Virus record (IMG/VR): IMGVR_UViG_3300028573_000014
Span: 1-64,000 of that record
Direction: 5' to 3' (one strand)
From: a virus
DNA length: 64,000 nucleotides
Shown: positions 24,406 to 42,338 of the stretch, in pieces
How positions within the stretch are numbered: position 1 is the stretch's first letter
How the letters are laid out: every line of letters begins with the position of its first letter
Position numbers and translations under genes: made by a program
The notes under the pieces: generated by a model
Told to the model about the DNA's origin: nothing
Database searches by the model: none
What the model saw: only the letters and a program-made list of their open reading frames with translations

Positions 24406-26762
24406 ATCGCCACCGCCTCAGTGTCAATGACCATATTGTGCTCATGGTCATGATGGTCATGTGACTTTGTGCCTGCGATGGGTACGCCTGCCAGTGAACC
24501 ATTGGCCGGTTCAGTTGTGTCATCGAGCGTACACAGACAGTTAATCCCCGTGCAGATACAACTATCGGAGCGGGGATAGATTCCATATTTGAGCCAGGTA
24601 CGCGCACGATGCACCTGCCCGTCAGCACCAGAACACGTTTCGCAGTGGTCTTTCGTGCCGCCAAGCGTAAATTTCTTCATGCCGTTCATCTTGCCGTACA
24701 TGTTGCCCAGTATCTTCATGCCCTGTAGACCCTTATTGATCCACAGTTCAATTCGACTAAGCATGGCATTACGGGCTGCTGAAAACTCAGGGGTCTCCCT
24801 GAGCGGAATCACATTGCGATACATGTCGTTTGCCAGCGCAGTCCAGTAACTGCGTTCCTGCTTTGTTTCCAGATCGAGCGCTGACTTTTCTTCATCGGTC
24901 ATCTCAGCGGGATCTGTACCCGCTTCCTGCATTCCGTTCTTAAACGCATTCAGGAAAGCCATCTCAATTTCGCTACGCCCTGCTACTCCGAACTGATTGC
25001 GATTCAAGTTTCCCTGGAAAGCATCGGTCATGAGTTCATATAGAGCAGTGCGATACTGTGCCTCGGTGTCCTCGTAGCCTTTAACCGCCTGCACCCGGAT
25101 GGCATTCCAGATTGATTCCGACGGTTCTTCACCGGAAAGCAGGAAACGACCAAACGCTACTGCATGGGCGGGTAGAGAGTCGCTCTTAAATGCATAATTT
25201 CTGCCCTTGCGCTCAATGAGAACACGCCAGTTCTTCAACTCTTTGTGCTGGGCATCGGGCAGGAACGGAATAGGATCGACACTTTTGCCTGTTGGTGCGG
25301 TAGGTGCAGTCGCTTCGGTAGATGCGCCCACTTCCGCAGCACGTGGAGTGCTTTCGCCTGTGCGGGATGGCTTATCGGGCTTAGCATTTTCTCCACCGGA
25401 AACCATGCCTGGATTACCAGGGGCCACACGCCAGTAGTTCTGCATTTCAGCGGATGGCACTGGAATGCCGCCGATAAGGTACAGACCTGTCAGGTTTTCG
25501 TCTACATTCAGCCCCAGTGTTTTCTGAGCATTTGCCAGATCCAGAACACCGTCCTTAAGCTGCTTGCTCACGGTATCCGTGCGGGATGAGATATCCTCGT
25601 CCAGGCCACGTACACGCTTGAAGGTGGGGACAATGCGCCATTCAGGATTGAGTGGCTTGGCAACCTGCTCAGTGAAGATGTCGGCATAGCGTTCTGACTG
25701 CGGGACCAGCCAGCTAATGAGCCATTCACGCTTCTGGTCGTAGAACTTTGTGCCCTGCGCACGCTGCGCCTGACGTGGCTCAATAAGTTCAAGTGGAACG
25801 CGCAGGATACGCAGACAGGCATCACGCGCCTGGTCGGTCAGGTTGGGCATTCCCAGCTTATCGAAGTCTTGCTGGAATTTCAGCATTTCCCAACGTGTGG
25901 GTAGAACAACCGTGCGACCTGCATTGGCTGCGCCCTGATACATCCGGCGCAGGTATTCACTCAGTTCGAGTTTCTGGTCAGGACCAGGGACATAACTCGA
26001 CCCGTCCGCAGGCTGAATAACAAAGGATGGCATCGCCATGTTGCGAAAGAACATCAATTGCGTGGCTGTGATCTCTGTCTCGGTAGCAGCCTGCGCATAA
26101 GCGACCATCAGCGGACCCGTGCCGCCAAAGTCTTCAAAGAAGTCAATGTTATGGAAATAAACAGTGTCTTCCGGCGGCAACCAGTCCAGATCTGGTTCAA
26201 GCTCGCTGCCCCAGACCGGACGGATATGGAAACCGCCCAGACCGCGTGAAGTATCGGTCTCACGGCGGAAGAAGTTATTGTTAATCCACTGAAACCCGTC
26301 GAGAATGCCAGACTGAGTCTTCAACCGACGCAGCAACACTTCGCCATAGCAGCAGTAGGACGTTTCAGACCGCTCAATAATGCTCTGGAAGTTAGACTGG
26401 AATGCCGCCTGAATGCCCTGAGCGCGAGGGGTGAAGAATTTGGGATCTCCCTCTTCGAGCAGTTCTCCAGCGGCATTGGCGATCTTAAAGTCAACCTGGC
26501 GCAGCGACTCAGCGCGGAGTTCAATGGCAGAACGTGCTGTAACTGCTGTCCTGAACAAATGTGCGATCTCGCTGTAGGAGACCTGCGGACGTAGCAGTGC
26601 GACTTCCTGATTCAGGTAAGTCTTGATAGCGCTGCCGCTGTTTTCCATGACGTTGAAGGGCAGGTCATTCAGGTCCAGTTCAAAGCGATTCTTGCGAATC
26701 GTTTGCGTGATCTGCTTTGATCGATTCTTTTTGCCCTGGAAGTGTCGATTACGGTGACTCAT
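24402..26762 (-). CDS. Portal protein fused to MuF-like head morphogenesis domain
   Basis: YGEVL, GTGPL, FFRNMAMPS, NAGRTVVL, ILRVP portal motifs; C-terminal HCETC...CTGINCLC; ATGA overlap with terL. Confidence 0.85.
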   Translation of the reverse strand: MSHRNRHFQGKKNRSKQITQTIRKNRFELDLNDLPFNVMENSGSAIKTYLNQEVALLRPQVSYSEIAHLFRTAVTARSAIELRAESLRQVDFKIANAAGELLEEGDPKFFTPRAQGIQAAFQSNFQSIIERSETSYCCYGEVLLRRLKTQSGILDGFQWINNNFFRRETDTSRGLGGFHIRPVWGSELEPDLDWLPPEDTVYFHNIDFFEDFGGTGPLMVAYAQAATETEITATQLMFFRNMAMPSFVIQPADGSSYVPGPDQKLELSEYLRRMYQGAANAGRTVVLPTRWEMLKFQQDFDKLGMPNLTDQARDACLRILRVPLELIEPRQAQRAQGTKFYDQKREWLISWLVPQSERYADIFTEQVAKPLNPEWRIVPTFKRVRGLDEDISSRTDTVSKQLKDGVLDLANAQKTLGLNVDENLTGLYLIGGIPVPSAEMQNYWRVAPGNPGMVSGGENAKPDKPSRTGESTPRAAEVGASTEATAPTAPTGKSVDPIPFLPDAQHKELKNWRVLIERKGRNYAFKSDSLPAHAVAFGRFLLSGEEPSESIWNAIRVQAVKGYEDTEAQYRTALYELMTDAFQGNLNRNQFGVAGRSEIEMAFLNAFKNGMQEAGTDPAEMTDEEKSALDLETKQERSYWTALANDMYRNVIPLRETPEFSAARNAMLSRIELWINKGLQGMKILGNMYGKMNGMKKFTLGGTKDHCETCSGADGQVHRARTWLKYGIYPRSDSCICTGINCLCTLDDTTEPANGSLAGVPIAGTKSHDHHDHEHNMVIDTEAVAI

Positions 26763-28117
26763 AAGAATATGTACTCCGCAGTGGGCCATGCAACATCAAT
26801 GGGCGGAGGAGGCGGAAACTGGACATTTCCATAAAGCACATCAGCGGGGATAATGCCCTGCGAGGCGTGCGGGATATCGATAAGTTCCGGTGCCCACTTG
26901 GGAACACCGTAGGTTGCGCCATGATAGGCCAGCGCTAGAGACATCACCATATCGTCATTCGAGTCACGGGGACCGGAATAACGGAATGCGCCAGATGGCA
27001 GTCGCTCCATCTGGAATGCATGGAGTTCGTCCAGAAGAAGCTGACCTATCGGCTGACCGTCAATGGCTTCACCCTTGTGAAGAACCTGTAGCTGACGATT
27101 GTCGAAGGCGGCAGCCAGTGCCTCAATGATGAGCGCCTTACTGCTACCACTGGTAGTGAAGGGCATAATGGGCAAGCCAGTGTCCATGAGACTTTCCATG
27201 AACGCCAGGTTGGTATTCTGCTCGACAATGATGCCTGCTGCGTGGAAAAGATTTGCCAGTGCAACAATGCGACCTTTTTGCAGCTTGTAGTCCACATGGT
27301 TGGCCCGGTCAATATAACAAACCGACATCAACGTTACGTCGATGACGGTGAACACGGAAAAGTCATTGGTCTTGGCAAGGTCAACGCCGATGACGTAGGT
27401 ATGACCGGCCTTTGGCTGAGCCTGAACAAAGCCCTGCGCCATCTCTTCCAGATTGCGGAACACAGATCCTGCATCCGAAATGAACTCGGCCAGGTATTCC
27501 TGCGAGAAAATGTTGACGGGCGTAGTTTTACGTGCATCTTCAATTTCACTTGCAGGCAGGAACGGATTGTCGGAAGAAGGCTTGTGCCAGCTCTCCCAGT
27601 CGGGAAAAGCGTCGTTTTTGCCCAGTCGATACAGATTCCAGAACCAGTTGTAACCCTTTGGCGTTGAGGCAAACAGGGCACGACCCTGCGTGGTCATGAG
27701 CATGGGTCGGATAACTTCTTGCCAGGTGTCACCAGAGGGAACAACCGCAGCCTCGTCAATGAGCACGAGATCGTATTCGCGTCCACGAGGACCATCTGGG
27801 TTGTCCAGTGACCACATTTCCACGACTGCACCGTTGATGGTCTCAATACGGTGTTCGTCTTCCTTCTTTTCCTTCGTGATGGGCGCAAGCATGTTCTTGA
27901 CAATGCGCCACATGTCTGCCAGCATCTTGTAGGTCGGGCACATGTAGGCAATGCGCTTGGCCTCGGACACTGCTCGAAGTATTTCAGCACGAAGGGTAAC
28001 GGTCTTGCCCCATCGTCGACCACAGTCCAGAACACGGAACCGGGCAGGCGACTCATAGACTTCTATCTGTCCAGGATGAAGGGCGAGACCCAGATAGACA
28101 TTAATCCTGTTGTCCAT
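26759..28117 (-). CDS. terL: Terminase large subunit
   Basis: GRRWGKT Walker A, LIDEAA Walker B, STPKG, IGVDLA and NDDMVMSLALA nuclease motifs. Confidence 0.95.
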   Translation of the reverse strand: MDNRINVYLGLALHPGQIEVYESPARFRVLDCGRRWGKTVTLRAEILRAVSEAKRIAYMCPTYKMLADMWRIVKNMLAPITKEKKEDEHRIETINGAVVEMWSLDNPDGPRGREYDLVLIDEAAVVPSGDTWQEVIRPMLMTTQGRALFASTPKGYNWFWNLYRLGKNDAFPDWESWHKPSSDNPFLPASEIEDARKTTPVNIFSQEYLAEFISDAGSVFRNLEEMAQGFVQAQPKAGHTYVIGVDLAKTNDFSVFTVIDVTLMSVCYIDRANHVDYKLQKGRIVALANLFHAAGIIVEQNTNLAFMESLMDTGLPIMPFTTSGSSKALIIEALAAAFDNRQLQVLHKGEAIDGQPIGQLLLDELHAFQMERLPSGAFRYSGPRDSNDDMVMSLALAYHGATYGVPKWAPELIDIPHASQGIIPADVLYGNVQFPPPPPIDVAWPTAEYIFL

Positions 28118-28598
28118 CGACCACCTGTGCATCTATGACTCTGGTGGTCTCTTCATCCTTCTTTTGCGGAGCGCCCAGAACGAAATTGATAACAATGTCG
28201 CCCCGTCCAGATTCCTGCTTCGGGCTGTACTTCTCTGGCCGGTTGCCTTTCAGGTGAATTTCAATCGCCTTGATTTTGGCTCCGGCAGGCGTATCCGGGG
28301 CAAGCGCCATGTCAACCAGCGCATCTTCGACATCATCTACAATGGACTCTTGAACATCATCCATAAGCTGGCGGAAGGCTGGATCAGTCTCACGCCAACG
28401 ATAGACCATAAACTTTTGTAGATCCGCTGCTTTACAGGCTTTACCGAGGTGCGCCCGAAACTCGGAATAGGTCCGCAGAAAGCGTTCTTTCTGGTCCTGA
28501 ATCTCAGCAAGCCGTTCTTCTTCCACATTGAATGCAGGAGAAAACGACTTGATATCTCGGTCTGGAGTTTGATCTAAGCGCTGCTGCCCGTCAGTCAC
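28101..28598 (-). CDS. terS: Terminase small subunit
   Basis: HTH (KACKAADL..VYRWRETDPAF), LKGNRPEKY, upstream of terL. Confidence 0.85.
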   Translation of the reverse strand: MTDGQQRLDQTPDRDIKSFSPAFNVEEERLAEIQDQKERFLRTYSEFRAHLGKACKAADLQKFMVYRWRETDPAFRQLMDDVQESIVDDVEDALVDMALAPDTPAGAKIKAIEIHLKGNRPEKYSPKQESGRGDIVINFVLGAPQKKDEETTRVIDAQVVDGQQD

Positions 28599-28620
28599 AT
28601 GATTTAGCCCATAAACAAAG

Positions 28621-28650
28621 AAGCATCTAATGGCAACAGATTAGATGCTT
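28621..28650. promoter_or_regulatory. 11-bp inverted repeat upstream of terS
   Basis: AAGCATCTAAT-ggcaacag-ATTAGATGCTT. Confidence 0.6.
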
Positions 28651-28694
28651 TTGAGGCTATAGACAATTAAGTAGTCTGGGGTAATAAAACTATC

Positions 28695-29048
28695 CTACGA
28701 GGTGTGTATTACCTCAGAAAATCTACTCTCTCTTATGACGGGATGGCTATATTGAGAATTGACCAGAAAGAATTCACCGTTCTTTTTAACGGCACGGCAT
28801 TCCCAGGGACGGGTCAGTTGCATTGCATAGTTGAACGCATTGCCCGTCGAGATGCCCATGATTTTCCCGATCTTCTCGTAGGTCGGTGTATTGCCACCGT
28901 GATCTGCGGCATAGAAAGCAATAATGAGTTCGACCCGATCTCGCTGCAATAAATCCTTGTTTGCAATGAGTTCAATGAGTTCATCGGGCGGGATCCACTC
29001 GTCCAGGTCAGGCTGGAAGGGTTTGCGTTCTGTAGATTTATTTGACAT
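28695..29048 (-). CDS. LexA-type winged-HTH protein
   Basis: PTYEKIGKIMGISTGNAF. Confidence 0.65.
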   Translation of the reverse strand: MSNKSTERKPFQPDLDEWIPPDELIELIANKDLLQRDRVELIIAFYAADHGGNTPTYEKIGKIMGISTGNAFNYAMQLTRPWECRAVKKNGEFFLVNSQYSHPVIRESRFSEVIHTS

Positions 29049-29277
29049 CGGTCAATGCCTTTAATCGCTCAGATATATCCCACGAGGACTCACTTAGCCA
29101 GTACTTCTTGTCTTTGCAGGATACTTTTCCATATGATACCAGTTCCCTGACATACATGTGGGCGTTCCCTGCGCTTGTGGCAGCCCCTTCCGCTATTTCG
29201 CGCATCGTGGGAAACTGTCCACCATGAGAAAGTCCATAGGTTGCAATAAAGAGTTCTATTTGATCGCGTTTTACCAT
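29038..29277 (-). CDS. LexA-type winged-HTH protein (paralogue of neighbour)
   Basis: PTMREIAEGAATSAGNAHMYVRELVSYG. Confidence 0.7.
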   Translation of the reverse strand: MVKRDQIELFIATYGLSHGGQFPTMREIAEGAATSAGNAHMYVRELVSYGKVSCKDKKYWLSESSWDISERLKALTDVK

Positions 29278-29813
29278 GATTTTGACTTTACCATAAAAGG
29301 TCCACGGACGTTAGGACTAAAGCGTGCAGCAACAGTCAGCGCCAGTTCGATCCGATGATCAACATCCCTCATTTTCTCAGTAGACCCAAGCGATCCGAGT
29401 GCATAATCTTCGCCAGATCCACAGGCAGCATAGTTCTCTGCGTAATGATTGACCTGAAAATCACTACAGACGCAGTAGATAGTTCCATGATAGCCTACCA
29501 GAAATTCTCCGCTGCTTTCCAGATTGTTTTCGATCTTGGAGATACCATGTTCTTTGAACAAACTGCGAACGTTTTCTGCAAAAACTTTGACCATGTAGGC
29601 ATCGTCAGAAACACCGTCTTTCTGCCTGGGAACAGTCAGATGATGCTGCAAGATTTGCCCCATCCTGAATGACCAGGTATAGCCAATGAGGAAGTCTCCG
29701 ACCTCGAAAACCTTTGGCAGCAGGCTGGTTCGCATTGTATTGCCTACGCTGGATGAACTATCAGCGCCTATGTATACCGTGTCGTTTTTAGCGATGCCAA
29801 CAATGCAGGTCAT
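29271..29813 (-). CDS. HslV/proteasome-beta-like Ntn protease
   Basis: MTCIVG N-terminal Thr, GADS, PKVF, ACGSGEDYALG. Confidence 0.8.
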   Translation of the reverse strand: MTCIVGIAKNDTVYIGADSSSSVGNTMRTSLLPKVFEVGDFLIGYTWSFRMGQILQHHLTVPRQKDGVSDDAYMVKVFAENVRSLFKEHGISKIENNLESSGEFLVGYHGTIYCVCSDFQVNHYAENYAACGSGEDYALGSLGSTEKMRDVDHRIELALTVAARFSPNVRGPFMVKSKSW

Positions 29814-30217
29814 TTGTATCCTTTGCTACTATCGTTTATGCTGCTAATTTCACTGGATATTGTGGCAATATAGGCGCGGCCATCCTTAAATTTCACAATT
29901 ACTTTTGTGCCCGGATATTTACCAGCCGCAACCCCCAATGGATCGTCAATGGAAATAGAGATAAAGGAGCCTTTTCGCATAAACCGTACAAAGGTTTTCC
30001 CTTCGGAATCTGGGTCGTAAATATAGCCTTCCGCAGTCCCTAATATGCCAACCTCACCTTCCTCAGTGTCTGGCGTATCGGATGGCGGACTCCACCAGGG
30101 CAAATAGAGATCAGGCCACATTTCGCGCTGATCGAAGTACCGATCCCGCTTCGACTGCCACTTGTGCTGCCGTGCATCTCGCCCCAGTCGGCGGATGGCT
30201 TCCAGTAAGGTTGTCAT
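29810..30217 (-). CDS. Stand-alone paralogue of the tail-fibre N-terminal domain
   Basis: GILGTAEGYIYDP..EGKTFVRF...GTKVIVKFKDGRAYI vs fibre [13 protein letters not shown]...SGRVWVRF...[16 protein letters not shown]. Confidence 0.55.
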   Translation of the reverse strand: MTTLLEAIRRLGRDARQHKWQSKRDRYFDQREMWPDLYLPWWSPPSDTPDTEEGEVGILGTAEGYIYDPDSEGKTFVRFMRKGSFISISIDDPLGVAAGKYPGTKVIVKFKDGRAYIATISSEISSINDSSKGYK

Positions 30218-30822
30218 GATATCCTGTAAGGACTTTCCATGACAGGCGGATCATCCCCGGTAAGTTCAACAAACTCTCCGAGCATATCCGCGCGAAACCC
30301 GACCTCGGAGGAGGACTCCACCACACTGCGAAGATCCTCGGCATTAAGGAACGGGTTGGTTTTGATGGGGAACATGAAGAACGCTGCATCGAGAAAGTGC
30401 TTCTTGCTCTGGGCGAACTTCTTCAACTCGATAAACAGGTCGGTCTGGTGCTTATGGCTTGGAACAGGCGTACCGACTGCCAGCAGTTTCCCGTCTGGGA
30501 TTAAGCACGGCAAAAGTTCATCGAGCAAATAAGGAGTCATGGTCGCAGGCTCATTGATGATGACGAGATCGAACTGATGTCCCCTGTATTTATCCTCGTT
30601 TTTCTCCATGTAGACAATTTTTCTGCCGCTGCTTACCACCATTGTTGTTTTGAAGAATTTGTTCATCCCGTGATTTGGACCAACAAAGAGGATTTCACGA
30701 GCATCGGATATCTCTATGCAAAATCTGCATAGTGCATCTTTGCCCCAGCGCCGACTGGTAGACACAACACGGTAGCGATCTCTGGAGTCCAGGACTAATT
30801 GCTGTCCAGTATGCGGGATCAT
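30214..30822 (-). CDS. Stand-alone degenerate terminase ATPase domain
   Basis: HTGQ, RYRVVSTSRRWGKD, RGHQFDLVIINEPA, VGTP, TNPFL, MLGEFV colinear with the N-half of TerL. Confidence 0.85.
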   Translation of the reverse strand: MIPHTGQQLVLDSRDRYRVVSTSRRWGKDALCRFCIEISDAREILFVGPNHGMNKFFKTTMVVSSGRKIVYMEKNEDKYRGHQFDLVIINEPATMTPYLLDELLPCLIPDGKLLAVGTPVPSHKHQTDLFIELKKFAQSKKHFLDAAFFMFPIKTNPFLNAEDLRSVVESSSEVGFRADMLGEFVELTGDDPPVMESPYRIS

Positions 30823-31085
30823 TCTGTTGCCGCCTTGATCTCCTGATCGATCTGATCTGCCAGTGAACGCAATTCATTGGCGCGACTTTTGACCTGCATC
30901 CACGAAGCAATGGAATTAAGCAATGGTTCGTAATTGAAGTCGGGCAAAATCGCTGGTCCGTTAGGCAAAAAACGGGGAAGTGAATTCCCGCTGGCAACAT
31001 CATTTAGTAGATGGAAAGCCCGAATTTCCTCCTCGGTGCAGGTTACAATAATCTCACCCTGAGACGTATAGCCAATTTGTTTCAT
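30819..31085 (-). CDS. Hypothetical protein
   Basis: ATGA-coupled in operon; contains an MCP-like peptide. Confidence 0.6.
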   Translation of the reverse strand: MKQIGYTSQGEIIVTCTEEEIRAFHLLNDVASGNSLPRFLPNGPAILPDFNYEPLLNSIASWMQVKSRANELRSLADQIDQEIKAATE

Positions 31086-32209
31086 TTCGTTTTCACTCCT
31101 TCAATAGCCTTCCGTAGTTCTTCAGCAACTCTGCCCACCTCTACCGATCTCATCTTCAAGTGCATGGGGAGCGACAATAGACGGTTACTGGCCTCGGTTG
31201 CTCTGGGCAAGTATCCGTGATACATCGGATACTGCGTGTTATCGACATAATGTACACCCGTTCCAATGCCAGCCAACTTCAGCGCATTGACCACTTCATT
31301 GCGGTTATCTACCAGTACCTGATACAGATGGCGAGACGGGACGCAATCTGGGGACATGGGCACGGTCTCGCAGACACCTGCTAACAGCTTGTCATACAGG
31401 GCTGCGATGCTCCGTCGATGCTGATTGTCATCGTCCAGATATTGCAGGGCAACCAGTCCCATTGCTGCCATGATACTGTTGCCGTTGTATTTCCAGCCAA
31501 CATTCTCCACGTCATATTCCCATGAGTATCCGGTGCCGGAAGACCTTGCATAGGTATCCTTGTCGATGCCCATCCAGGACAATTTGCGCGACTGAGCATC
31601 CATTTCAGGATCTGCCCAACAGATCATGCCAGAATCGCCCGTCGGTAGATTTTTCACTGCCTGAAAGCTGAACACGGAAACATCAGCGGTTGCACCAACA
31701 TGATCGCCATCTAGCCAGCGCGTTCCTGCCATGTGAGCAGCGTCCAGAATGAGCTTTAACCCATGAGATTGGCATATCTCCCAGATTTTGGCGTACTGTC
31801 CTACATTGCCTCCAAGTCCTACGAAAACTACGGCTCTGGTGCGCGGGGTGATTTGCTCCTCTACACTGTCGGGGTCCAGACACATGTACTGGTCAACATC
31901 TGCGAATACAGGTGTTAATCGTTCATACAAAATAGGATGATTCGTGCTGACGAAGGTGATCGGCGTGGTGATCACTTCATCACCATCGGACCATCCATAA
32001 CTGAGTTCGTGCATTGCCAAATGAAGTCCTGCTGTCGCACTATTCAAGAAGCACGCATTTGGCAGTCCAGTGTATTTCTTCCACGCTTCTTCAAACTCAA
32101 CAGTCTTGTAACCGATGCCCGTCCAGCCCTTTTCGAGACACTGGCGAATCTCGGCAAGCACTTCTTCGGTGCGAAAGACGGGGGTGAAAAGTTGGATGGA
32201 ATCGCTCAT
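31082..32209 (-). CDS. DegT/DnrJ/EryC1/StrS sugar aminotransferase
   Basis: NSATAGLH, TFVST, DAAH, FSFQAVKNL (PLP Lys), LSLPMH. Confidence 0.95.
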   Translation of the reverse strand: MSDSIQLFTPVFRTEEVLAEIRQCLEKGWTGIGYKTVEFEEAWKKYTGLPNACFLNSATAGLHLAMHELSYGWSDGDEVITTPITFVSTNHPILYERLTPVFADVDQYMCLDPDSVEEQITPRTRAVVFVGLGGNVGQYAKIWEICQSHGLKLILDAAHMAGTRWLDGDHVGATADVSVFSFQAVKNLPTGDSGMICWADPEMDAQSRKLSWMGIDKDTYARSSGTGYSWEYDVENVGWKYNGNSIMAAMGLVALQYLDDDNQHRRSIAALYDKLLAGVCETVPMSPDCVPSRHLYQVLVDNRNEVVNALKLAGIGTGVHYVDNTQYPMYHGYLPRATEASNRLLSLPMHLKMRSVEVGRVAEELRKAIEGVKTK

Positions 32210-32463
32210 TTGATCACCTGCGAATTACCACTGCCACCAACAATATTCTGTGTCGTACTGATCGGCGGACCATCGTAGCAGTCAATGATGGTCGATTGTC
32301 GTCCTGTACCATGCCAGAACGCCCACTTAATGAAGTGTCGATGTTCCATCCAGAACTCGATCAATTCTTCAGCAGCCTCTTTGCCATCGTTGCCATGCGG
32401 ATACATTTCACTGGCGTTATCGACCAGTTCCTGAAATTTTTTGCGAAGTTGTGCAGGAGTCAT
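32206..32463 (-). CDS. Hypothetical protein
   Basis: GAGGA SD, coupled to the aminotransferase; MCP-like peptide. Confidence 0.6.
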   Translation of the reverse strand: MTPAQLRKKFQELVDNASEMYPHGNDGKEAAEELIEFWMEHRHFIKWAFWHGTGRQSTIIDCYDGPPISTTQNIVGGSGNSQVIK

Positions 32464-32505
32464 TTCGTTGTTTTTCCTCTCATTTTGCGGTAAAATACGA
32501 ATTAC

Positions 32506-32557
32506 TGTGGTCTAGGGTAGCTCCCGAAAAGGTGGTTTCGTCACCGCCCTGACCCAT
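32506..32557 (+). ncRNA. Structured RNA leader upstream of the HNH gene
   Basis: GGTC...GACC closing stem enclosing GGG-TAGCT-CCC and GGTGG-TTTCG-TCACC hairpins, just after -10 TAAAAT (32491-32496). Confidence 0.5.
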
Positions 32558-32594
32558 ATACATCTTGACGAACTAGCACAAGACGAGGTGCTAA

Positions 32595-33386
32595 GTGATC
32601 TACCAGCCGTCTCCAATTGGTCGGATATGCAAAAAGTGCAACGAATGGAAACCGCGAGCAAGGCTCGTAAAGGAAAAACGCTGTCTCTGGGGCGTACATG
32701 CCCTTTGCCTTGACTGTGTTGCTGCGAGAATAAGAGAAGACAGACAGAAAAATCCTCTCAAATACCGTATTTATGAGCGGAAATTTAGAAAAGAACATCC
32801 AGATCGGTATCGCACATATCAAAGAAGCCATAACGAACAGAGAAACGCAGGAAACCGTCGCCGCCGCGCTCTCAATCCACAACATGCTAGAGACTATCAC
32901 AATAGATGGCGAAAGAAGAATCGTGAACTTGTCAGACGGTATGAACAAGCGACTAATAGCCGTCATCCTGATCGCGTAAAGCAAAAATCGCAGGTGAGAA
33001 GATCCCGAAAGCATAACCTTCCCTCCGAATTCACTGAAAAACATTGGTTGGAATGTCTTCAATACTTCAACAATAGATGCGCATACTGCGGTAGACCACA
33101 AGGACTGTGGCATTCTCTTTCGCAAGATCACTTTATCCCAGTTAAAAAAGAGGGCGGTTATATTCCAGGCAACATCGTACCAGCATGTCATGGTATAGAT
33201 GGTTGCAATGAGAGCAAACACGACAAGGATGCCGTTGATTGGCTGACTGCAAAGTACGGAAAGCGAACAAGCAAATTGATCTTGCAAAGAATATTTGCCT
33301 ATTTTCAATGGGTCGAGCATTCTAGCGCGTTACCCTCAACTGAAAATCCCGCGCAGGTTCATGCCACACACCAGGGACAATCGTAA
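32595..33386 (+). CDS. HNH endonuclease (antisense insertion)
   Basis: CKKC..CLDC, basic helical linker, CAYCG..QDHFIP..GNIVPAC..CNESK. Confidence 0.9.
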   Translation: MIYQPSPIGRICKKCNEWKPRARLVKEKRCLWGVHALCLDCVAARIREDRQKNPLKYRIYERKFRKEHPDRYRTYQRSHNEQRNAGNRRRRALNPQHARDYHNRWRKKNRELVRRYEQATNSRHPDRVKQKSQVRRSRKHNLPSEFTEKHWLECLQYFNNRCAYCGRPQGLWHSLSQDHFIPVKKEGGYIPGNIVPACHGIDGCNESKHDKDAVDWLTAKYGKRTSKLILQRIFAYFQWVEHSSALPSTENPAQVHATHQGQS

Positions 33387-33840
33387 TGTTTTCACGATTG
33401 AACCCGGCATCCACTACCATATCTGACAGTGACTGCGGCGTATAACCCCAGCGGTGTCCCATTAACGGTTCATCGGGCGAACTATTTCCGAAGACTCCCC
33501 ACCATCCGAACTGCTCAACCGATCTGCCATCTGGTGGTTGAATAACACCTGCGATCACTTTGCAGCAGTATGCCAGATCGGGCTGCTCAAGGATCAGAAG
33601 ACCTTCAGGCAGCAAAACATCATAGCATTGCTTGAGCACAATCAAAGCGTCCTGTTTGAAGAAATGCTCGATAATGTGCGATGCTACGACTTCTGTGAAT
33701 TTTTGTGACATCACTTCGTCGGGTAACGGCGGTAGCATAGCGCAAATATCAGGTTCGTTGGCAGGATTCCCATCAATGGTTACATATTCCTGCCAATGCC
33801 ATTCTCCGCTGCCTATGAGCAACTTCGTCTTATTTATCAC
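33322..33840 (-). CDS. SAM-dependent methyltransferase-like protein
   Basis: LLIGSG, ASHIIEHF, LLPEGLL..PD, HRWGY. Confidence 0.75.
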   Translation of the reverse strand: MINKTKLLIGSGEWHWQEYVTIDGNPANEPDICAMLPPLPDEVMSQKFTEVVASHIIEHFFKQDALIVLKQCYDVLLPEGLLILEQPDLAYCCKVIAGVIQPPDGRSVEQFGWWGVFGNSSPDEPLMGHRWGYTPQSLSDMVVDAGFNRENITIVPGVWHEPARDFQLRVTR

Positions 33841-34084
33841 GGTCTTCCTTTCCCTTCACTAATTCTTTCCAGATTACAGGTTGTGCTGTCAAATCTTCAC
33901 AGATATAAAAATGTCCGCTGCCGTCCTGCACCATCACCCTGTTACTGGGAGGTGATATCTTGAAAATAGCCAACTCTGCAAACGATGGCATTGTCATCGG
34001 CAAGATAATCGTTCTCAGTGGCTGATATATCATGCAGCCCCACCGATAGTCTCCTGCGACATAGTATGGTTTCATTGATCTCAT
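33830..34084 (-). CDS. Hypothetical protein with tail-protein-like segment
   Basis: ATGA-coupled; NRVMVQDGSGHFYICEDLTAQPVIW resembles blades in 9509..13003. Confidence 0.5.
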   Translation of the reverse strand: MRSMKPYYVAGDYRWGCMIYQPLRTIILPMTMPSFAELAIFKISPPSNRVMVQDGSGHFYICEDLTAQPVIWKELVKGKEDRDK

Positions 34085-34980
34085 GGCTTGAAACCCGCAA
34101 GCACCTTTATCCACTTGAGCGCCACCTTGTCCGCTGTGAATTGCTGTGCAGCGACCCATCCCAACTCAGCATCCGACTCGCGCAGGGTTTTGTCGTTTGC
34201 GCTGGACAGAGCTGCGCACCATTGCTCAGTAGTCTCTGCCATCCAGAACAATCCTATCTCCTGATAAGAAGGGATAGGCGTTCCTACCACTGGTAGACCG
34301 AGGCCATAGGCTTTCAGCAGTCGGTTGGCACTCTTGGTCATCACCCAGTTGACCGACCATTGGGGACTGCCAAACACGAACGGGAAGATCGCCATATCAT
34401 GCTCGACCATCAATTGGTCTACTGTATCAGCGGACCACTGCTGCGCATTCCAGCCTTCTTTAGGCAGTTGATCCGTCTGCTCGGAGAAATGCGGATTGTT
34501 GAGATCCGTAATAATGGTCAGATTAATGCCCAGTGTACGGCAAGCACGGGCTGCATAGCATAGATGATACATGTTCTGAGTATTGCCGACCCAGACAGCG
34601 CTATTCAAGTTGTCTGCGTGTACTTTCTTGCGAGGGCTGGTCGGCTCAGTATCCAGACAATCTGGAATAACGATTGCCCCAGGGAAATGAGCGAGCTTGG
34701 ACTCAGTGTCCACTGTGATCTGATCCACCTCGGCAGGGATAGGCGTGGAAATAAGATCGTCAATGTCGAAAATGATACGCTTCCCCGCAGCCTTGAACAT
34801 CTTCATTGAGCCATCCTGCGGCCAGACCTTCTGATACACCACAACGTCACAATCCGATGAATTGTAACTGTTGAAGGTAACGGTATGCCCCATCGCTCGG
34901 AGCGCTGTAGCGACCTTCCAGACACGGAGTCGACTACTGGCAAAGTCTGTGCTGCCTGCGGGGAAATAGTTAATGCGCAT
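34081..34980 (-). CDS. Glycosyltransferase (GT-B)
   Basis: ASSRLR, IFDIDD, WVG, KSANRL...GLPVVGTPIPSY. Confidence 0.85.
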   Translation of the reverse strand: MRINYFPAGSTDFASSRLRVWKVATALRAMGHTVTFNSYNSSDCDVVVYQKVWPQDGSMKMFKAAGKRIIFDIDDLISTPIPAEVDQITVDTESKLAHFPGAIVIPDCLDTEPTSPRKKVHADNLNSAVWVGNTQNMYHLCYAARACRTLGINLTIITDLNNPHFSEQTDQLPKEGWNAQQWSADTVDQLMVEHDMAIFPFVFGSPQWSVNWVMTKSANRLLKAYGLGLPVVGTPIPSYQEIGLFWMAETTEQWCAALSSANDKTLRESDAELGWVAAQQFTADKVALKWIKVLAGFKP

Positions 34981-35353
34981 TGTTGTCTCTCAATTCACTG
35001 AACAACTGGTCAATGGCACCAGCTTCGATATAAACGCTAGCTTTTACTGACTCTGCCATTCTCCGATAAGCATCCTCGTAAGTATCTGCCCACATACAAT
35101 CAATGAAGTCTGGCTGCTTACCTTCCTTCCAGATGTCCCATGCGATGCGACGTTCAATGCCCGATTCTGCTATCTCTAGCGGAGGTGCTGTATATGTATG
35201 CAATGTCCACCAGTTAACTTCAAGCGGTTTAATTTGCGCCACATTGTAAGGGAAAGCGATGCCGCGATAATCGAAGTCGCCGCGGTTGGTTCCCACATGG
35301 AATGTCCACTGCTTTGAAATAAGAAGGATGGCAGGAGCCAGTTTGATCTTCAT
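34970..35353 (-). CDS. Hypothetical protein
   Basis: Overlap-coupled ORF in operon. Confidence 0.55.
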   Translation of the reverse strand: MKIKLAPAILLISKQWTFHVGTNRGDFDYRGIAFPYNVAQIKPLEVNWWTLHTYTAPPLEIAESGIERRIAWDIWKEGKQPDFIDCMWADTYEDAYRRMAESVKASVYIEAGAIDQLFSELRDNNAH

Positions 35354-35847
35354 CGTCTGCCTACAAACAATCTATCCGACATGGGATCATAAGCGGCAAA
35401 AATATCGAGATAGTCATATGGATTAGAGGGGTAGCCATGATAATTACCAACCATATAACGTTCAAATCGGATAGTGCGAACACTAACACTGGGACTAACA
35501 CCGAAGTTGAGATCGATCATGCCAATATGTTCGATGCTCATTGGTCGCCAGTTGGCGGGCCGGTCCGCCGGATGGTAGCGATTATCGACCAGCCACTTGT
35601 GAAACCGCTTGACGCAGCGCAAATAGAACGCCTTCCAGCCTTTTGCGGGATACCAGTTATTCCGATAAGGACGCATCATTGAATCGTCCTGTACAGGGAT
35701 CTGTATCTCACGGGGAGAATTGTACACAAGTTCAATGGTCGTCTTGTCATTCAACTGTGGAATTTTGCTGCGCATTTCGCGCCACAGATAAAAGGCAAGC
35801 GGACCATCTCCGATAACTGACTGCAAAGGATGAACGGGCGCTCTCAT
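35350..35847 (-). CDS. Hypothetical protein
   Basis: Overlap-coupled ORF in operon. Confidence 0.55.
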   Translation of the reverse strand: MRAPVHPLQSVIGDGPLAFYLWREMRSKIPQLNDKTTIELVYNSPREIQIPVQDDSMMRPYRNNWYPAKGWKAFYLRCVKRFHKWLVDNRYHPADRPANWRPMSIEHIGMIDLNFGVSPSVSVRTIRFERYMVGNYHGYPSNPYDYLDIFAAYDPMSDRLFVGRR

Positions 35848-36809
35848 GCCTTTACCCCCACATGCTCCAGTATATCCATAACACGCTGACGACTTCGTTC
35901 AAAGGTGAATTGTTCAACCATTCGATATTGTTCAGCAACTGCATTCCCATAATAACTGTTGCTGCTGAGCAATTCAGCCATCACGCTAGCCTGCGCAGGG
36001 TCAAAGGGGTCAATATGTAGTCCTGGCGCATCATTGCACCACTCAGAACTGATCACAGGTGTACCGACCATCGCGCACAGAACCTGCTGCCGACCATAGC
36101 TATGGCGCGTGTAAATGTCCACGCACATCTGCGCCTTAGCCGTAATCGCCACAAAATAAGGCCATGCGACGTGCCCCAGAAACTCAGCCTTGAGGCCAGC
36201 GATACGCGCATAGTCCGAGGTCCAGTCCCGCTGCGCTGCATACAGCACCCGACAGCCTGTTTTGCGCTGGATGGCAGCCACTGCCGCAACGTTATTGGCA
36301 GTATTGTTGTCAATGTCGATGCTGTGGTCGAGCGTGAGAATGTAGTCTTCTTTGGGCAAGTCACGATAAGGCAAGAAGAATTCTGTGTCACCGATAGGGG
36401 ATGGGAGATAAAACGTTGGTTTGTTCAATAGCTCGCCATACACATTGCAATCTGCATGTGTACGCCCCCCAATGGCATCTGCCATGCTCATCTGGTGCAG
36501 CATAAACATCCAGTCTGGACGAGTCAACACAATATCCACGCAGGCATCCGGGCAGGCAATACAGTAACAGGTCGGGTTGACCGCTTTTATCTGCTCAATG
36601 TGACGCGAGTCTGTGGTGTGGAATAAGTTAACTATAACGATCCTTGCTTTCCGCACCGCATCTGGCATTGTCCCTGGTTGCCGTGTATCCCAGCGTTGCC
36701 ACGGCAAATCCAACACGGTAGACCAATTAGAGACGCTTACGGTAGGCGGACCACCTGGTCCGCTTGTAACGAACTCGCCCCACACAAGCGCAAGATCACT
36801 CAGTTGCAT
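35844..36809 (-). CDS. Divergent glycosyltransferase (GT4-like)
   Basis: EFLGHV, HSYGRQQVLCAMVGTPVISS, DPFDP, FTFER. Confidence 0.75.
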   Translation of the reverse strand: MQLSDLALVWGEFVTSGPGGPPTVSVSNWSTVLDLPWQRWDTRQPGTMPDAVRKARIVIVNLFHTTDSRHIEQIKAVNPTCYCIACPDACVDIVLTRPDWMFMLHQMSMADAIGGRTHADCNVYGELLNKPTFYLPSPIGDTEFFLPYRDLPKEDYILTLDHSIDIDNNTANNVAAVAAIQRKTGCRVLYAAQRDWTSDYARIAGLKAEFLGHVAWPYFVAITAKAQMCVDIYTRHSYGRQQVLCAMVGTPVISSEWCNDAPGLHIDPFDPAQASVMAELLSSNSYYGNAVAEQYRMVEQFTFERSRQRVMDILEHVGVKA

Positions 36810-37092
36810 TGTTAACCACCTTGTTCATTTCTTCCCGCACAATAAGGCGGATCATTCTGGTCAAGTCAACCGACTTCTCCAGCGGGACATAATTTGCCGC
36901 GTAATCAGTGGAGATGCCCAGTGCCACCACGCCCGGAATGCTTGCCCTCATTCTTTGCAAAACAGCATTGATAAGTTCCCCGTCTCGGCCTGCAACAATC
37001 CAGACATCATCACCCAGATTGAACATTTTCATCTTTCCCAGGTCGAAGATTCCAGGTTGAGTAGCATCAATTGGCTCAGGTAGATCACTCAT
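36796..37092 (-). CDS. Hypothetical protein
   Basis: Overlap-coupled ORF in operon. Confidence 0.55.
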   Translation of the reverse strand: MSDLPEPIDATQPGIFDLGKMKMFNLGDDVWIVAGRDGELINAVLQRMRASIPGVVALGISTDYAANYVPLEKSVDLTRMIRLIVREEMNKVVNNATE

Positions 37093-37351
37093 CCAACATT
37101 CCTTTCACAACACCCTCAATGTATTTCTTTAAAACTTCATTGTCATTAAGATTAAGCACTATTTCCAGCGAGAAGGGCAAGACTACCATTCGCACACCGA
37201 TAGGAGCCAGCCTTTCCTGGTACACACTCACAACATGATCGAGCTTTTCATGATATAGTGGCGATGCACCGAGCGGTAGTCCAAACAGTATCAGCGTCGG
37301 GCTAACAACGATAACCGAAAGCAGAATGTCAGGCGTAGCCATATTATGCAA
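37085..37351 (-). CDS. Small protein resembling an internal portal segment
   Basis: HNMATPDILL...VRMVVLPFSLEI vs portal RNMAMPSFVI...GRTVVLPTRWEM. Confidence 0.5.
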   Translation of the reverse strand: MHNMATPDILLSVIVVSPTLILFGLPLGASPLYHEKLDHVVSVYQERLAPIGVRMVVLPFSLEIVLNLNDNEVLKKYIEGVVKGMLDE

Positions 37352-37892
37352 ACCTTATCGATAGGCCACCGTGCCGCGTGCCATGCAAAGCCAGTGCGGT
37401 AGCCACTACTGTTTCAGTGTTTCTGACGGGCAGAAAATCTCCCTGTCCGCCAGCGCGGTATTCATAGCCAGATAGCTCATTGATAAGCCCTTCGTCAGGA
37501 ACAATGCGCAATCGCCCCATATTTAATTCCAGCGCCAGATTATTGAGCATGTCGGCTCTGCTTGCCCTGGTCATACGTAGTGGGTACACGGGTAATCCCT
37601 CCGATCGCAACGCTTCGATGTTAGGACCGCCAATGCTGGCCGCCTCAACATAGATAAGCTGCGGTTTCCATATTTTGTGCAACGCGGATACTCGATCTCG
37701 CTGCACTGCATAACCCTCACCTATGGTTCGGTCCAGCGCGACCAGTTGATGCGTTGTAGCATCCATAATGGCTACGCCCATACGGTCCATATGGTTTCCC
37801 CAGTCCAGCCCGAAGACTATCCGATGACCAACAACAGGCTTATCCTGCGGCTCAACTCTGGCATATCGTTCTGGATTGGGGAAGAGCCTCAT
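37344..37892 (-). CDS. Stand-alone terminase nuclease (RNase H-like) domain
   Basis: FGLDWG..D, IYVEAASIG, GLPV, LINELSGY, TETVVATALALHG colinear with the C-half of TerL. Confidence 0.85.
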   Translation of the reverse strand: MRLFPNPERYARVEPQDKPVVGHRIVFGLDWGNHMDRMGVAIMDATTHQLVALDRTIGEGYAVQRDRVSALHKIWKPQLIYVEAASIGGPNIEALRSEGLPVYPLRMTRASRADMLNNLALELNMGRLRIVPDEGLINELSGYEYRAGGQGDFLPVRNTETVVATALALHGTRHGGLSIRFA

Positions 37893-38518
37893 CTCTTTGT
37901 TGCCTTTCGTGCTGGCGCTTTGGCCTTTGCCTTTGTGGTAATGGCTCCAGTACCTTCGCCTATCGTAGGCGTTCCACCGGACACTTCAAACTCATAGTGG
38001 GCAGGAGAAGACTTTGGCTCATCAATCTCACCCCACACTCGTACAGCACTGGCGCAGACATCGTAGCCAGATTCCACGGTGCGAATATCATCGAGTACGC
38101 CCGTGTTCGTCATGAGTTCACGCAGGGCTTCTTCGGACATTCGCCACAGGTCCGGTCCAGATTTTACGGGCGGTTTGGTGAAGGAGGGGGTAACAATTAC
38201 CAGTAACCCCTGCGGATGCATTACGCGGACCAATTCTTTCATCCATGACACGAGATCCAGCACTGCGTAAGCCACGCTGCCTGAGATAACAATGTCATAG
38301 TGACCGCTTTCGATGGGATAGTGGTAGGGATTATCTGCCACGATATCCACATTGGAGTTGGCTTCCAGGTCCAGCCCCGTGTAATGCCAGCCAAGCGACA
38401 CGATGTACTCCCTGTAGGACCCGTTTACGTTGAAAGCGCCAACGTCCAGCACTGAAGCGCCAGTCTCAGGGTAGCGTTGCAAAGCGTCAGCCATAAGGTC
38501 CAGACTTCCCTGGTGCAT
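37889..38518 (-). CDS. Class I SAM-dependent methyltransferase
   Basis: VLDVGAFNVNGSYR, YTGLDL, YDIVISG, ELVRVMHPQG, DLWR. Confidence 0.85.
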   Translation of the reverse strand: MHQGSLDLMADALQRYPETGASVLDVGAFNVNGSYREYIVSLGWHYTGLDLEANSNVDIVADNPYHYPIESGHYDIVISGSVAYAVLDLVSWMKELVRVMHPQGLLVIVTPSFTKPPVKSGPDLWRMSEEALRELMTNTGVLDDIRTVESGYDVCASAVRVWGEIDEPKSSPAHYEFEVSGGTPTIGEGTGAITTKAKAKAPARKATKR

Positions 38519-38526
38519 AATTCTCC

Positions 38527-38703
38527 CTATCCTGTAATATGAGCGGTTAAAATGACGATCCCGAAGAAAAACAGTGCAGCGGCAAGGCTAGCCCAGTCGG
38601 GCAGTTTCATCTTGCCACCAATCCAGCGAACCAATCCGCCTACGAGGGCAGCAACAAGGCACAACACAATAACAACCGCGGCGACATGCGTATCGACAGT
38701 CAT
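38527..38703 (-). CDS. Small two-TM membrane protein
   Basis: 58-aa hydrophobic ORF read manually, coupled to the GT gene. Confidence 0.55.
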   Translation of the reverse strand: MTVDTHVAAVVIVLCLVAALVGGLVRWIGGKMKLPDWASLAAALFFFGIVILTAHITG

Positions 38704-40049
38704 AGATTCTCCGTTTTCTTTATTTCCTGTAGCACACGTTTTTTGTCCCAGATAGGGGCAACTTTTTCAGGTTCAGTCTTCTTCCTCAACCATTCGGCAT
38801 GAGGTTCGGCCTTCAACTGTGCATCAATCTCATTGAGCACAGGGATAAAATGATCTTTCAGCACTGTCTCTACATCATAGACCAGTGCAGCCTTACGGGT
38901 ACGCTCACGCAGTTCTGGCATCTCGCCTGCCTTCCAGATGCTATAAGCGTGCGCCAGACAGTCAGCGGCATCATAAGGGTCTGCCAGCATCTGATAGCTT
39001 CGCGGAATGCGTTCTGGCTGAAAACGAATACCGCTGACTTTCCAGCCGGTCAGGTTAATCTCACTGCTAGCGGCAAAATCGATGGCGATCAGTGGACAAC
39101 CACACGCCTGCGCCTCAACATCGGTCAGGCCAAAACCTTCGCCATAGGAGAGCATCAGTTTCGCGTCCGCTGCGTTGTAAACATCGACCAGATGATCATC
39201 CGTGGGAATGCCAGTCACCATCATGTAAGTACCGAGGCTGCGCAGGCTACCATTACCATCGCCATCGACCAGAAGATGGTTCCCGCCGGGGAAGATAACC
39301 TTGTCGGCAATGCCCAGTTGAGCAGCCATCGCATCGATGGGATGGCCATGGACTCCAGAAGGGTCAGCGTGGACGTAAAGAAGCGCATCGGGATGGTCAT
39401 GCGAAAAGAGTTGGAACGCCTCGAACATTCCCGCGAAATTCTTGCGCCCACCTTCGCCATTGTTGGCTACGATAACGACCAGGAATGCATCATCGGGGAT
39501 AACCTGATCGATCAGGTTCTTGGTGAACATGTTCTTCCGCGCCTGACTTCGATCAGTGGGTTTAAACACCTCAGTCTCAATGCCGTGTGGCACATAGAGA
39601 GGCTTCAATCCAATTTCCTTCATCTGCGCTTCGCCATGTCGTGAAATAGCGATGGGCCAGCGGCAAGCATTGAACTGAGCACGCTCGTTTTGCAGAATAG
39701 GTTCACAATCTACCGGACACCAGGCTGCCCACGGGAGCGGCATCCACAGGTCTGGACGCATCGCAAAAATGTCAATGAGCGACCAGATTACACTGGTGCG
39801 TTGATGGTTCGGAAAGTATGTCTGGGCGTACAGATAGTGACCGTAGATCACGTCATTGCCGTGCTGTTCTTTGACACGTGGCAAATGCACAATGCCTGCT
39901 GCATCAGCCAGCGGAGATCCTTCCAGGCCACGATAAGCGCTGACGACTACACCATAGCCTGCTTCTTTAAGACGGTGAGTCCAGATGCGCGATTGTGTGC
40001 CGTACCCGCTGGGCATCCAGGTTGCGTTAGAGTGCCAGAGTATATTCAC
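38700..40049 (-). CDS. GT4-family glycosyltransferase
   Basis: SGYGTQ, VPHGIETEVFKP, RKNF, YNAAD, GEGFGL..VEAQACGCP. Confidence 0.92.
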   Translation of the reverse strand: MNILWHSNATWMPSGYGTQSRIWTHRLKEAGYGVVVSAYRGLEGSPLADAAGIVHLPRVKEQHGNDVIYGHYLYAQTYFPNHQRTSVIWSLIDIFAMRPDLWMPLPWAAWCPVDCEPILQNERAQFNACRWPIAISRHGEAQMKEIGLKPLYVPHGIETEVFKPTDRSQARKNMFTKNLIDQVIPDDAFLVVIVANNGEGGRKNFAGMFEAFQLFSHDHPDALLYVHADPSGVHGHPIDAMAAQLGIADKVIFPGGNHLLVDGDGNGSLRSLGTYMMVTGIPTDDHLVDVYNAADAKLMLSYGEGFGLTDVEAQACGCPLIAIDFAASSEINLTGWKVSGIRFQPERIPRSYQMLADPYDAADCLAHAYSIWKAGEMPELRERTRKAALVYDVETVLKDHFIPVLNEIDAQLKAEPHAEWLRKKTEPEKVAPIWDKKRVLQEIKKTENL

Positions 40050-40501
40050 GATTCGTCCTTTACTACATAAATAGTCCGCTGATCTTCCCAGACCACGCGG
40101 CAACTGAACGGACCTATAGTCATAAATCCACCGAACTTGTGGGTTTCAAACGAGTCTGCCAAAAGCTCTTTAGCAACCCCCACAATTTCTTTATTCCCCC
40201 ACATATACTGATAAGTGATCATGTTGTTCGTCATGTCTTTCTCACGAACGACTGTAATAACGCCTGTATCTGTCGGTCTCGGATACGACCTTATCAGTTC
40301 ATCGATCTTCTTATAACCAGCGTCGGATAAGCCGCGCAGGAATTTCTGCGTTCCGATGGATCTTGTCCATACATAGGGACTATCTAGCAATTCAGTATAT
40401 TCGGCATCAGTGATGACCTGAACGAAATTATCATTCGGGTGTTTCCCAGCCCTCTCTAGCCAGGGCAGTATTCTGAGCAGGTCGAGATCACTTAGGGGCA
40501 T
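40046..40501 (-). CDS. Hypothetical protein
   Basis: Coupled ORF. Confidence 0.55.
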   Translation of the reverse strand: MPLSDLDLLRILPWLERAGKHPNDNFVQVITDAEYTELLDSPYVWTRSIGTQKFLRGLSDAGYKKIDELIRSYPRPTDTGVITVVREKDMTNNMITYQYMWGNKEIVGVAKELLADSFETHKFGGFMTIGPFSCRVVWEDQRTIYVVKDES

Positions 40502-41882: not shown

Positions 41883-42338
41883 TCATTGAGTAGCCTTCCA
41901 TTTACCGAAACGCATCATCAATGCATCGACCAGTTGGTACAGATCGAAGAAAACATACTGAAGATATCTCTCTGCTGAGATTTCCAGATTGCGCCGTCGG
42001 TAGAACTGGCTACCGGCACCAACAATTAACTTCCCAGACTTCCAGTACAAACCCGCCTCAAAAAAGCTGATCGGCGCTTTCGATGAGGATGGCAACCACA
42101 TAAAGATAAGGTCAGCCTTCTCCAGTGCGTCCAGTTCCCAGTGAATTTGCCCGTCTAGCGTATCTGGCGTGAATGCTGCTCGACGGGGATTGATCAGCAC
42201 CAGATCGTCGTAGTCCTTCAATGTCTCAATAACTTTTGCCTGCCAGTCTTCGGCAGCACCCATATCAATTGCGCCTGCCAGAAAGACGCGATAACCAGGA
42301 ACATCGACAGACTCAGGGGCAGTAATTACAGTGGTCAC
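41883..42338 (-). CDS. Nucleoside 2-deoxyribosyltransferase-like protein
   Basis: VFLAGAI, DWQ, NPRR, QIHWE..ALEKAD, PISFFEAG. Confidence 0.85.
   Translation of the reverse strand: MTTVITAPESVDVPGYRVFLAGAIDMGAAEDWQAKVIETLKDYDDLVLINPRRAAFTPDTLDGQIHWELDALEKADLIFMWLPSSSKAPISFFEAGLYWKSGKLIVGAGSQFYRRRNLEISAERYLQYVFFDLYQLVDALMMRFGKWKATQ

Follow-up and report, generated by a model that had tools for sequence, protein, structure and literature searches.

A stand-alone terminase nuclease-fold gene of apparent foreign ancestry beside an intact large terminase gene in a phage

The locus and its surroundings

The locus holds a small gene encoding only the nuclease half of a large terminase (TerL), the nuclease-fold ORF, set in a minus-strand operon of a phage that also carries an intact TerL gene and, closer to it, an ORF that encodes only a TerL ATPase domain (Table 1). 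The window, which is the whole stretch analysed, comprises the first 64 kb (64,000 nucleotides) of a linear IMG/VR virus record of 79,953 bp (IMGVR_UViG_3300028573_000014), with a completeness of ~51% according to the CheckV estimate. Its DNA is also present in many rhizosphere metagenome runs from 2019, and a megablast of window positions 26000-40500 against phages gave no match. The minus strand carries genes from about 3.3 to 54 kb. The accessory region upstream of the packaging module includes two methyltransferases, GT-B glycosyltransferases, and many unassigned ORFs.

Table 1. Features of the nuclease-fold locus and of the packaging module (window coordinates)
Feature	Position	Strand	Remarks
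Portal protein	24402-26789	-	Phage_portal
Resident TerL, full-length, 457 aa	26759-28132	-	Canonical motifs; Terminase_6N 1.3e-14, phrog_2 4e-43
Probable TerS (small terminase subunit)	28101-28598	-	Weak Sf6_terminase match
Stand-alone TerL ATPase-domain ORF, 202 aa	30214-30822	-	Walker A RRWGKD, Walker B IINE
Accessory genes between the two single-domain ORFs	30819-37351	-	Several ORFs without assigned function
DegT aminotransferase	31082-32209	-	In the accessory region between the two single-domain ORFs
HNH endonuclease gene	32595-33386	+	Pfam HNH 1.2e-5; within the minus-strand accessory operon
Methyltransferase	33322-33840	-	In the accessory region between the two single-domain ORFs
Small downstream ORF, 85 aa	37085-37342	-	ATG at 37342; no family match
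Stand-alone TerL nuclease-fold protein (P0001), 182 aa	37344-37892	-	ATG to TAA
ATGA overlap	37889-37892	-	Methyltransferase stop / nuclease-fold ORF start
Upstream SAM-dependent methyltransferase, 209 aa	37889-38518	-	K/A-rich C-terminal tail

Residues 3-175 of the nuclease-fold ORF align to residues 224-409 of the resident TerL, that is, to its nuclease half only (BLASTP, 26% identity, E 9e-13). The ATPase domain is absent from the polypeptide, which starts at the interdomain linker, and the open frame 5' of the start adds just 31 codons that overlap the methyltransferase gene. The Pfam family Terminase_6C scores 13.3 bits against the protein, under the cut-off of 22.6, and hence Pfam alone would miss it. 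The ATGA overlap at its start suggests translational coupling with the methyltransferase, a gap of 1 nt separates its TAA from the ATG of the 85-aa ORF, and the ORF that follows the latter again starts through an ATGA overlap. The nuclease-fold ORF has a GC content of 0.528, and both its GC and its codon-position pattern are like those of the rest of the phage. Taken together, the overlap, the 1-nt gap, and the phage-like composition make it a tightly packed operon gene. Scans for promoters and terminators around it remained at background level.

Contigs of sequencing runs were mapped onto the region, and none of the differences listed falls inside the nuclease-fold ORF. One contig of run X8 (depth 8.4; about 20-25 in the main form) connects position 37092 directly with 37344, the shorter side of the joint being only 30 nt. 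This junction takes out positions 37093-37343 and thereby exactly the 85-aa ORF, which is therefore optional in the phage population. The strain contig X11 has ~10 differences within 40 nt (window positions 37953-37990) in the K/A-rich tail of the methyltransferase (…TKAKAKAPARKATKR), and the adjoining start of the nuclease-fold ORF is free of differences among those listed.

Several other genes of the window deserve mention. The HNH gene, which is probably a homing-type insertion, overlaps an unannotatable 259-aa ORF of the minus strand (32541-33320). A 180-aa ORF at 29271-29813, just upstream of the packaging genes, starts with MTCIVGI and matches the Proteasome family over its N-terminal part (PF00227, 3e-5); it is a proteasome/HslV-like Ntn hydrolase. 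A nucleoside 2-deoxyribosyltransferase-like protein is encoded at 41883-42338 (PF15891, 7.7e-23), upstream of sugar and methyltransferase genes, and may hint at nucleotide or DNA modification. We also considered whether the neighbouring ORFs form an operon of virion-protein fragments, which BLASTP did not support: in single comparisons, the 85-aa ORF matched the portal with an E-value of 2.4 and a 135-aa ORF (29810-30217) matched the tail fibre with an E-value of 0.035.

Fold and active site

The AlphaFold2 model of the nuclease-fold protein, built on a 75-sequence alignment, has a pLDDT of 91.9 and a pTM of 0.89, and the ESM Atlas model of the identical sequence has a pTM of 0.88. The best PDB matches of the model with Foldseek are the TerL nuclease domains of G20c and P74-26 (5m1f/5tge; TM 0.79-0.83, E 7.5e-14 to 3.5e-12), followed by T4/RB49 gp17, D6E, P22, HK97, SPP1, and Sf6, whereas RuvC (7xhj/4ld0) shows weak fold similarity only (TMq 0.46). 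The sequence match to 5tge has an E-value of 7e-10 (HMMER). The protein is thus a complete TerL nuclease domain and nothing else, with a predicted RNase H/RuvC-like fold of the terminase type.

An earlier note, made from the sequence alone, had described an ORF with a GLDWG motif and a central Glu in which NTETV replaces the NDDMV of the resident TerL, and had asked whether such a protein would fold and is conserved. All the motifs are present as described (GLDWG with D30, E83 in 'YVEAAS', NTETV), the protein is predicted to fold with the confidence given above, and it is conserved in a homologue with the same ends, P0003.

We mapped the residues onto G20c/P74-26 from HMMER alignments to 5TGE and 5M1F. 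D30 and D36, at the positions of G20c D294 and D300, are kept. E83 takes the place of D347 and is acidic, with Glu as in the family, and R112 is a conservative change of K377. The equivalents of three other residues are lost: K297 is N33 (the family has Arg in 86%), H427 is N158, and D428 is T159, at a position where Asp is invariant in 73 relatives. Two further positions differ from all relatives, namely E160, at the place of D429 (Asp to Glu; Asp in 73/73), and A85, which has no mapped G20c counterpart, follows the central acidic residue, and replaces an Asn found in 73/73. Carboxylates are still at all three metal-ligand positions (D30, E83, and E160, the latter a Glu at the metal-A ligand), but the supporting catalytic residues K297/H427/D428 and the invariant Asn are gone, and with them the second shell. 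The beta-hairpin is 4 residues shorter, model confidence is lower around it (pLDDT 78 over residues 141-160), and the protein ends in the tail GGLSIRFA.

Mutants of the two crystallised enzymes are informative on these positions. In G20c, D294N, D347N, and D429N gave the lowest activity, the authors calling these three residues indispensable, and activity was strongly reduced in D428N/A and H427A (PMC5389553). In P74-26, cleavage was lost in K297A, K377A, and R421E; on its own, the nuclease domain does not bind or cut DNA, which is gripped by the ATPase domain (PMC5389665). Some residual Mn/Mg-dependent cutting could nevertheless persist in the nuclease-fold protein, given the carboxylates of D30, E83, and E160.

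Relatives and ancestry of the nuclease-fold ORF

We searched for near-length relatives among 5.8 billion clustered proteins. The cluster of the nuclease-fold ORF itself has 2 sequences from 11 contigs (up to 96 kb for those of P0001), the variant P0016 differing at 6 residues. There is one clear stand-alone homologue, P0003, a protein of 188 aa and 51% identity from a 2.7-kb contig, which starts at the matching linker position and ends in ...SIRFA, like the nuclease-fold ORF. All remaining close matches are full-length or truncated TerLs. The best full-length ones are P0019 (410 aa, 53%, E 1.8e-46), P0020, and P0002, with 49-53% identity over the nuclease half. The named members of the wider match list are mostly from Anaerolineae/Chloroflexi (Chloroflexota) MAGs. 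The resident TerL ranks last of the 121 matches, and yet it is 41% identical to P0019. The TerLs of the P0019 clade are about 400-410 aa long, with canonical Walker motifs, HDD, and short branches. The 'short TerLs' of 340 aa (P0021-P0025) have miscalled starts and are no biological short form. A possible third stand-alone nuclease-fold protein, P0252 (179 aa, from a 781-bp ENA contig), shares the linker start, is without the central 'AEAN' Glu segment, and carries GDD for the HDD of the family; it may have an independent origin or be a fragment.

Scans for related loci found none in metagenome contigs. In genome contigs, a scan with P0003 found none either, and neither did scans of viral contigs with the resident TerL and with the ATPase-only ORF. 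Related loci in viral contigs were limited to full-length TerLs, L001 and L004.

The phylogenetic tree of the nuclease half (75 rows, rooted on the resident TerL, quick IQ-TREE search with SH-aLRT support only) groups P0001 and P0003 in one clade (SH-aLRT 99), nested within starred clades of full-length TerLs of 11 rows (96) and 15 rows (99). The stem of the stand-alone clade has a length of 0.71 and its tips of 0.68 and 1.04, whereas sister tips have 0.03-0.15. The nesting and the branch lengths indicate that the stand-alone lineage arose among closely related TerLs and then evolved ~10-20x faster. Since P0001 and P0003 are both long-branched, long-branch attraction could inflate their pairing. 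The two proteins also share the truncation point and the departures L3, P5, Y61, and L116, in columns that hardly vary among 72-73 TerL relatives (92-99%). Hence, judging from the sequences, the nuclease-fold ORF descends from a P0019-clade TerL of another phage lineage and did not arise by duplicating the resident terL. The term 'paralogue', which the earlier note had used with respect to the resident TerL, is not supported, as the tree places the ORF inside a different TerL clade.

The ATPase-only ORF

Aligned to the resident TerL, the ATPase-only ORF covers residues 19-222. In transcription order it follows the nuclease-fold ORF on the same strand, at a distance of 6,522 nt. An exhaustive HMMER search among 1.84 billion representatives returned one strong relative, P0140 (201 aa, 41% identity, E 2e-40), a stand-alone protein with canonical GKS and DE from a 1.1-kb contig. 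Weaker stand-alone relatives of about 170-230 aa are P0209, P0165, P0172, P0181, P0195, P0154, P0152, and P0162, and full-length TerLs match with E-values of 5e-9 or worse. The tree of the N-terminal half, again from a quick search and supported by SH-aLRT values alone, has ten stand-alone ATPases together in a single starred clade with long branches, apart from the P0019 clade. Forcing the ATPase-only ORF and P0140 into the P0019 clade costs a delta lnL of 31, which is not significant (AU p = 0.0785). The ATPase-only ORF is 22-28% identical to every TerL, and the nuclease-fold ORF up to 53%; among full-length pairs with a C-half identity of 0.50-0.55, the N-half identity is 0.43 on average and at least 0.25. 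The phylogeny of both halves, proposed in the earlier note, thus gives a divided answer: the nuclease half is inside the P0019 clade, and the ATPase half in a separate, older-looking clade made only of stand-alone proteins, although a common origin is not rejected (AU p = 0.08).

Of ten stand-alone TerL-ATPase proteins, four (the ATPase-only ORF, P0152, P0162, and P0172) carry an acidic residue behind the GK of Walker A (GKD or GKE), and all four have N-E at Walker B. The other six have D-E; five of them combine it with GKS, GKT, GKL, or the variant of P0181, which lacks the Lys, and the sixth, P0150, is a fragment with GKT.

The ends of the two ORFs are complementary to the residue: the ATPase-only ORF aligns through '...EFVELTG' and the nuclease-fold ORF starts at the next 'xxF'. 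The crystallised ATPase-domain construct of P74-26 matches up to that boundary, which is also where independent stand-alone ATPases terminate and where P0003 and P0252 begin. The complementarity therefore follows from a natural domain boundary that recurs in independent stand-alone forms, and we dropped it as a sign of one split event. A circular permutation or integration was also considered, and the flanks contain no more repeats than chance would give. That both ORFs come from one gene by a single split is not supported by these comparisons. This is in line with the earlier note, which had remarked that the domain order is reversed and that the two ORFs are not one interrupted gene: the order and the distance of 6.5 kb are as it stated, an intact TerL is encoded nearby, and the motifs are degenerate.

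What the stand-alone lineage conserves

We compared P0001 and P0003 each with the consensus of their sister clade in windows of 10 residues. Both keep residues 21-30 (beta-1), 41-50, and 91-100 (NIEAL..GL), and above all 161-182, the stretch of the last helix and tail, where their conservation is strongest. Both have diverged at 31-40, the loop with the K297 and D300 equivalents, and at 141-160, which covers the beta-hairpin and the HDD loop, and P0003 has additionally diverged at 81-90. P0003 lacks the equivalents of D294, D300, and D54 (D30 is replaced by L, D36 by F). The loss of the first catalytic Asp and of other residues in P0003 indicates that catalysis is not what the stand-alone lineage conserves. 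The tail of the stand-alone proteins matches the P0019-type GG[IL]SIRFA and does not resemble that of the resident TerL, whose C-terminus is long and different. Under neutral drift, the probability that both frames stay open at ~50% divergence is 2e-3 to 2e-7, computed from the codon content of the ORF and ignoring indels.

Our preferred explanation, to which we give a probability of roughly 0.55, is that the nuclease-fold ORF encodes a maintained, non-catalytic accessory protein derived from a TerL. The gene would be kept by selection and would provide only the C-terminal RNase H/RuvC-like fold of the large terminase. After the loss of the ATPase domain, the lineage sped up about 10-20x and changed in its active-site loops (L0, L1, beta-hairpin, HDD loop), but retained its hydrophobic core, last helix, and C-terminal tail. 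We infer that the protein no longer cuts DNA and acts as a binding module; its role and its partner are inferred in the same way. Part of the rate acceleration could reflect relaxed selection and not a new function.

The function most likely to have been retained would reside in the last helix and the C-terminal tail, both of them conserved. In TerL, docking on the portal or procapsid is most often attributed to the C-terminal domain and tail, a matter that is debated (PMC5389665). The protein could thus modulate or compete with terminase docking, either that of its own phage or that of the P0019-type terminases of rival phages. The conservation of a P0019-type tail as the most conserved stretch suggests a docking competitor or modulator, perhaps directed against P0019-type phages, although a role as docking competitor is only a tentative proposal. 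It is unlikely, if conceivable, that the nuclease-fold protein is a terminase mimic used in conflict. With the docking helix and tail of a foreign, P0019-type terminase but no ability to cut, it would then, alone or with the ATPase-only protein, block the portal or the terminase assembly of rival phages in the same host, or soak up a host immune receptor that senses terminase.

Alternative explanations

The presence of both halves in one minus-strand accessory region raises the question of a two-piece accessory terminase, in which the nuclease-fold and ATPase-only proteins would join in trans into a TerL-like heterodimer, apart from the resident terminase. The residue-level complementarity of the ORFs would fit, as would the fact that each has one clear stand-alone orthologue at a similar divergence (P0003 at 51%, P0140 at 41%), the need of the P74-26 nuclease domain for the ATPase domain in order to reach DNA (PMC5389665), and a common P0019-clade origin that the AU test does not reject (p = 0.0785). 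However, the truncations fall at a natural boundary and recur independently, the two genes are 6.5 kb and about ten genes apart in reversed order, and the nuclease active site is degenerate. Moreover, the ATPase-only ORF belongs to the all-stand-alone clade of 10 long-branched proteins and not to the P0019 clade (delta lnL 31), and its identity of 22-28% to TerLs is low for N-halves at the 53% C-half identity of the nuclease-fold ORF. We find this association improbable. A free nuclease or resolvase that is still active with a D-E-E metal site, as the earlier note had envisaged, is quite improbable for other reasons, even if the carboxylates of D30, D36, E83, and E160 stand at the positions of D294, D300, D347, and D429, the fold is RuvC-like, and RuvC is among the Foldseek matches. 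The second shell has gone (the counterparts of K297, H427, and D428, together with the invariant Asn85), the beta-hairpin has been shortened by four residues, the orthologue P0003 lacks the D294 equivalent, that is, the first catalytic Asp, and the isolated nuclease domain of P74-26 is inert on DNA, which it neither binds nor cleaves (PMC5389665).

Decay of the active site, a branch 10-20x longer than those of the sisters, the great rarity of relatives, and the mosaic character of the surrounding accessory region, which includes a homing-type HNH gene, could also be expected if recombination had left behind a remnant of a foreign terL that has no function and is open by chance. Such a remnant would hardly account for two frames with the same ends that both remain without stop codons at ~50% divergence (2e-3 to 2e-7 under neutral drift), for the conservation of the core and the C-terminus in a confidently predicted fold, or for the tightly coupled coding and phage-like composition, and we consider it very improbable. 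Lowest of all we rank a link to Avs3-type host sensors of terminase: the protein would be their decoy or sponge, or else a copy moulded by escape from recognition. SeAvs3 binds the native-fold nuclease domain of terminase and reads its active-site residues, and some nuclease domains can trigger KpAvs2 (PMC13601566); the changed positions of the nuclease-fold ORF are on the active-site face. But a native-fold copy is expected to trigger such sensors, not to block them, and we found no anti-Avs activity of any terminase fragment in the literature. The maintained, non-catalytic accessory protein remains our preferred explanation.

Relation to known systems and implications

The closest structural counterpart of the nuclease-fold ORF is the nuclease domain of P74-26/G20c TerL (5TGE, 5M1F), with which it shares the fold over its whole length, the strand order, and the places of the first Asp, of the central acidic residue, and of the last helix. 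Even its boundary is that of the crystallised P74-26/G20c constructs. It differs from these TerLs in having NTE for HDD, in the loss of the K297 equivalent, and in being an extra gene beside an intact TerL. Unlike the TerLs of the P0019 clade, it starts at the interdomain linker and evolves 10-20x faster. A single terminase domain encoded as an extra small phage gene is also seen in T4 vs.8 and in the family of the ATPase-only ORF, but there it is the other half: T4 vs.8 is described as ATPase-like, with homology to the ATPase domain of terminase, and is uncharacterised (PMC13601566).

Genes of terL that are split by introns, inteins, or homing endonucleases also have the nuclease domain in its own frame, like the nuclease-fold ORF. 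The pieces of a split terL are the only TerL of the phage, are placed in N-to-C order, and keep the catalytic residues. In contrast, the nuclease-fold ORF has an intact TerL beside it, a reversed order with 6.5 kb in between, and degenerate motifs. Two proteins in our searches, P0220 and P0244, resemble pieces of split terL with intact motifs, and LAGLIDADG-TerL clusters exist.

Our literature search returned no description of an inactive stand-alone paralogue of the terminase nuclease, nor of a terminase decoy. The ESM Atlas has several viral clusters of proteins of 175-230 aa with only Terminase_6C, some of which may be fragments or split genes. These clusters suggest that stand-alone terminase nuclease genes are recurrent but uncharacterised. 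The present case contributes the clear foreign ancestry, the jump in evolutionary rate, and the co-resident ATPase-only gene. As this phage carries the complementary ATPase-only gene, the cooperation of the two halves is directly testable. No enzyme of tailed phages is more conserved than the terminase, which bacterial immune sensors target. Single terminase domains, if maintained as non-catalytic accessory genes, would represent an unexplored layer of packaging control or of competition over packaging.
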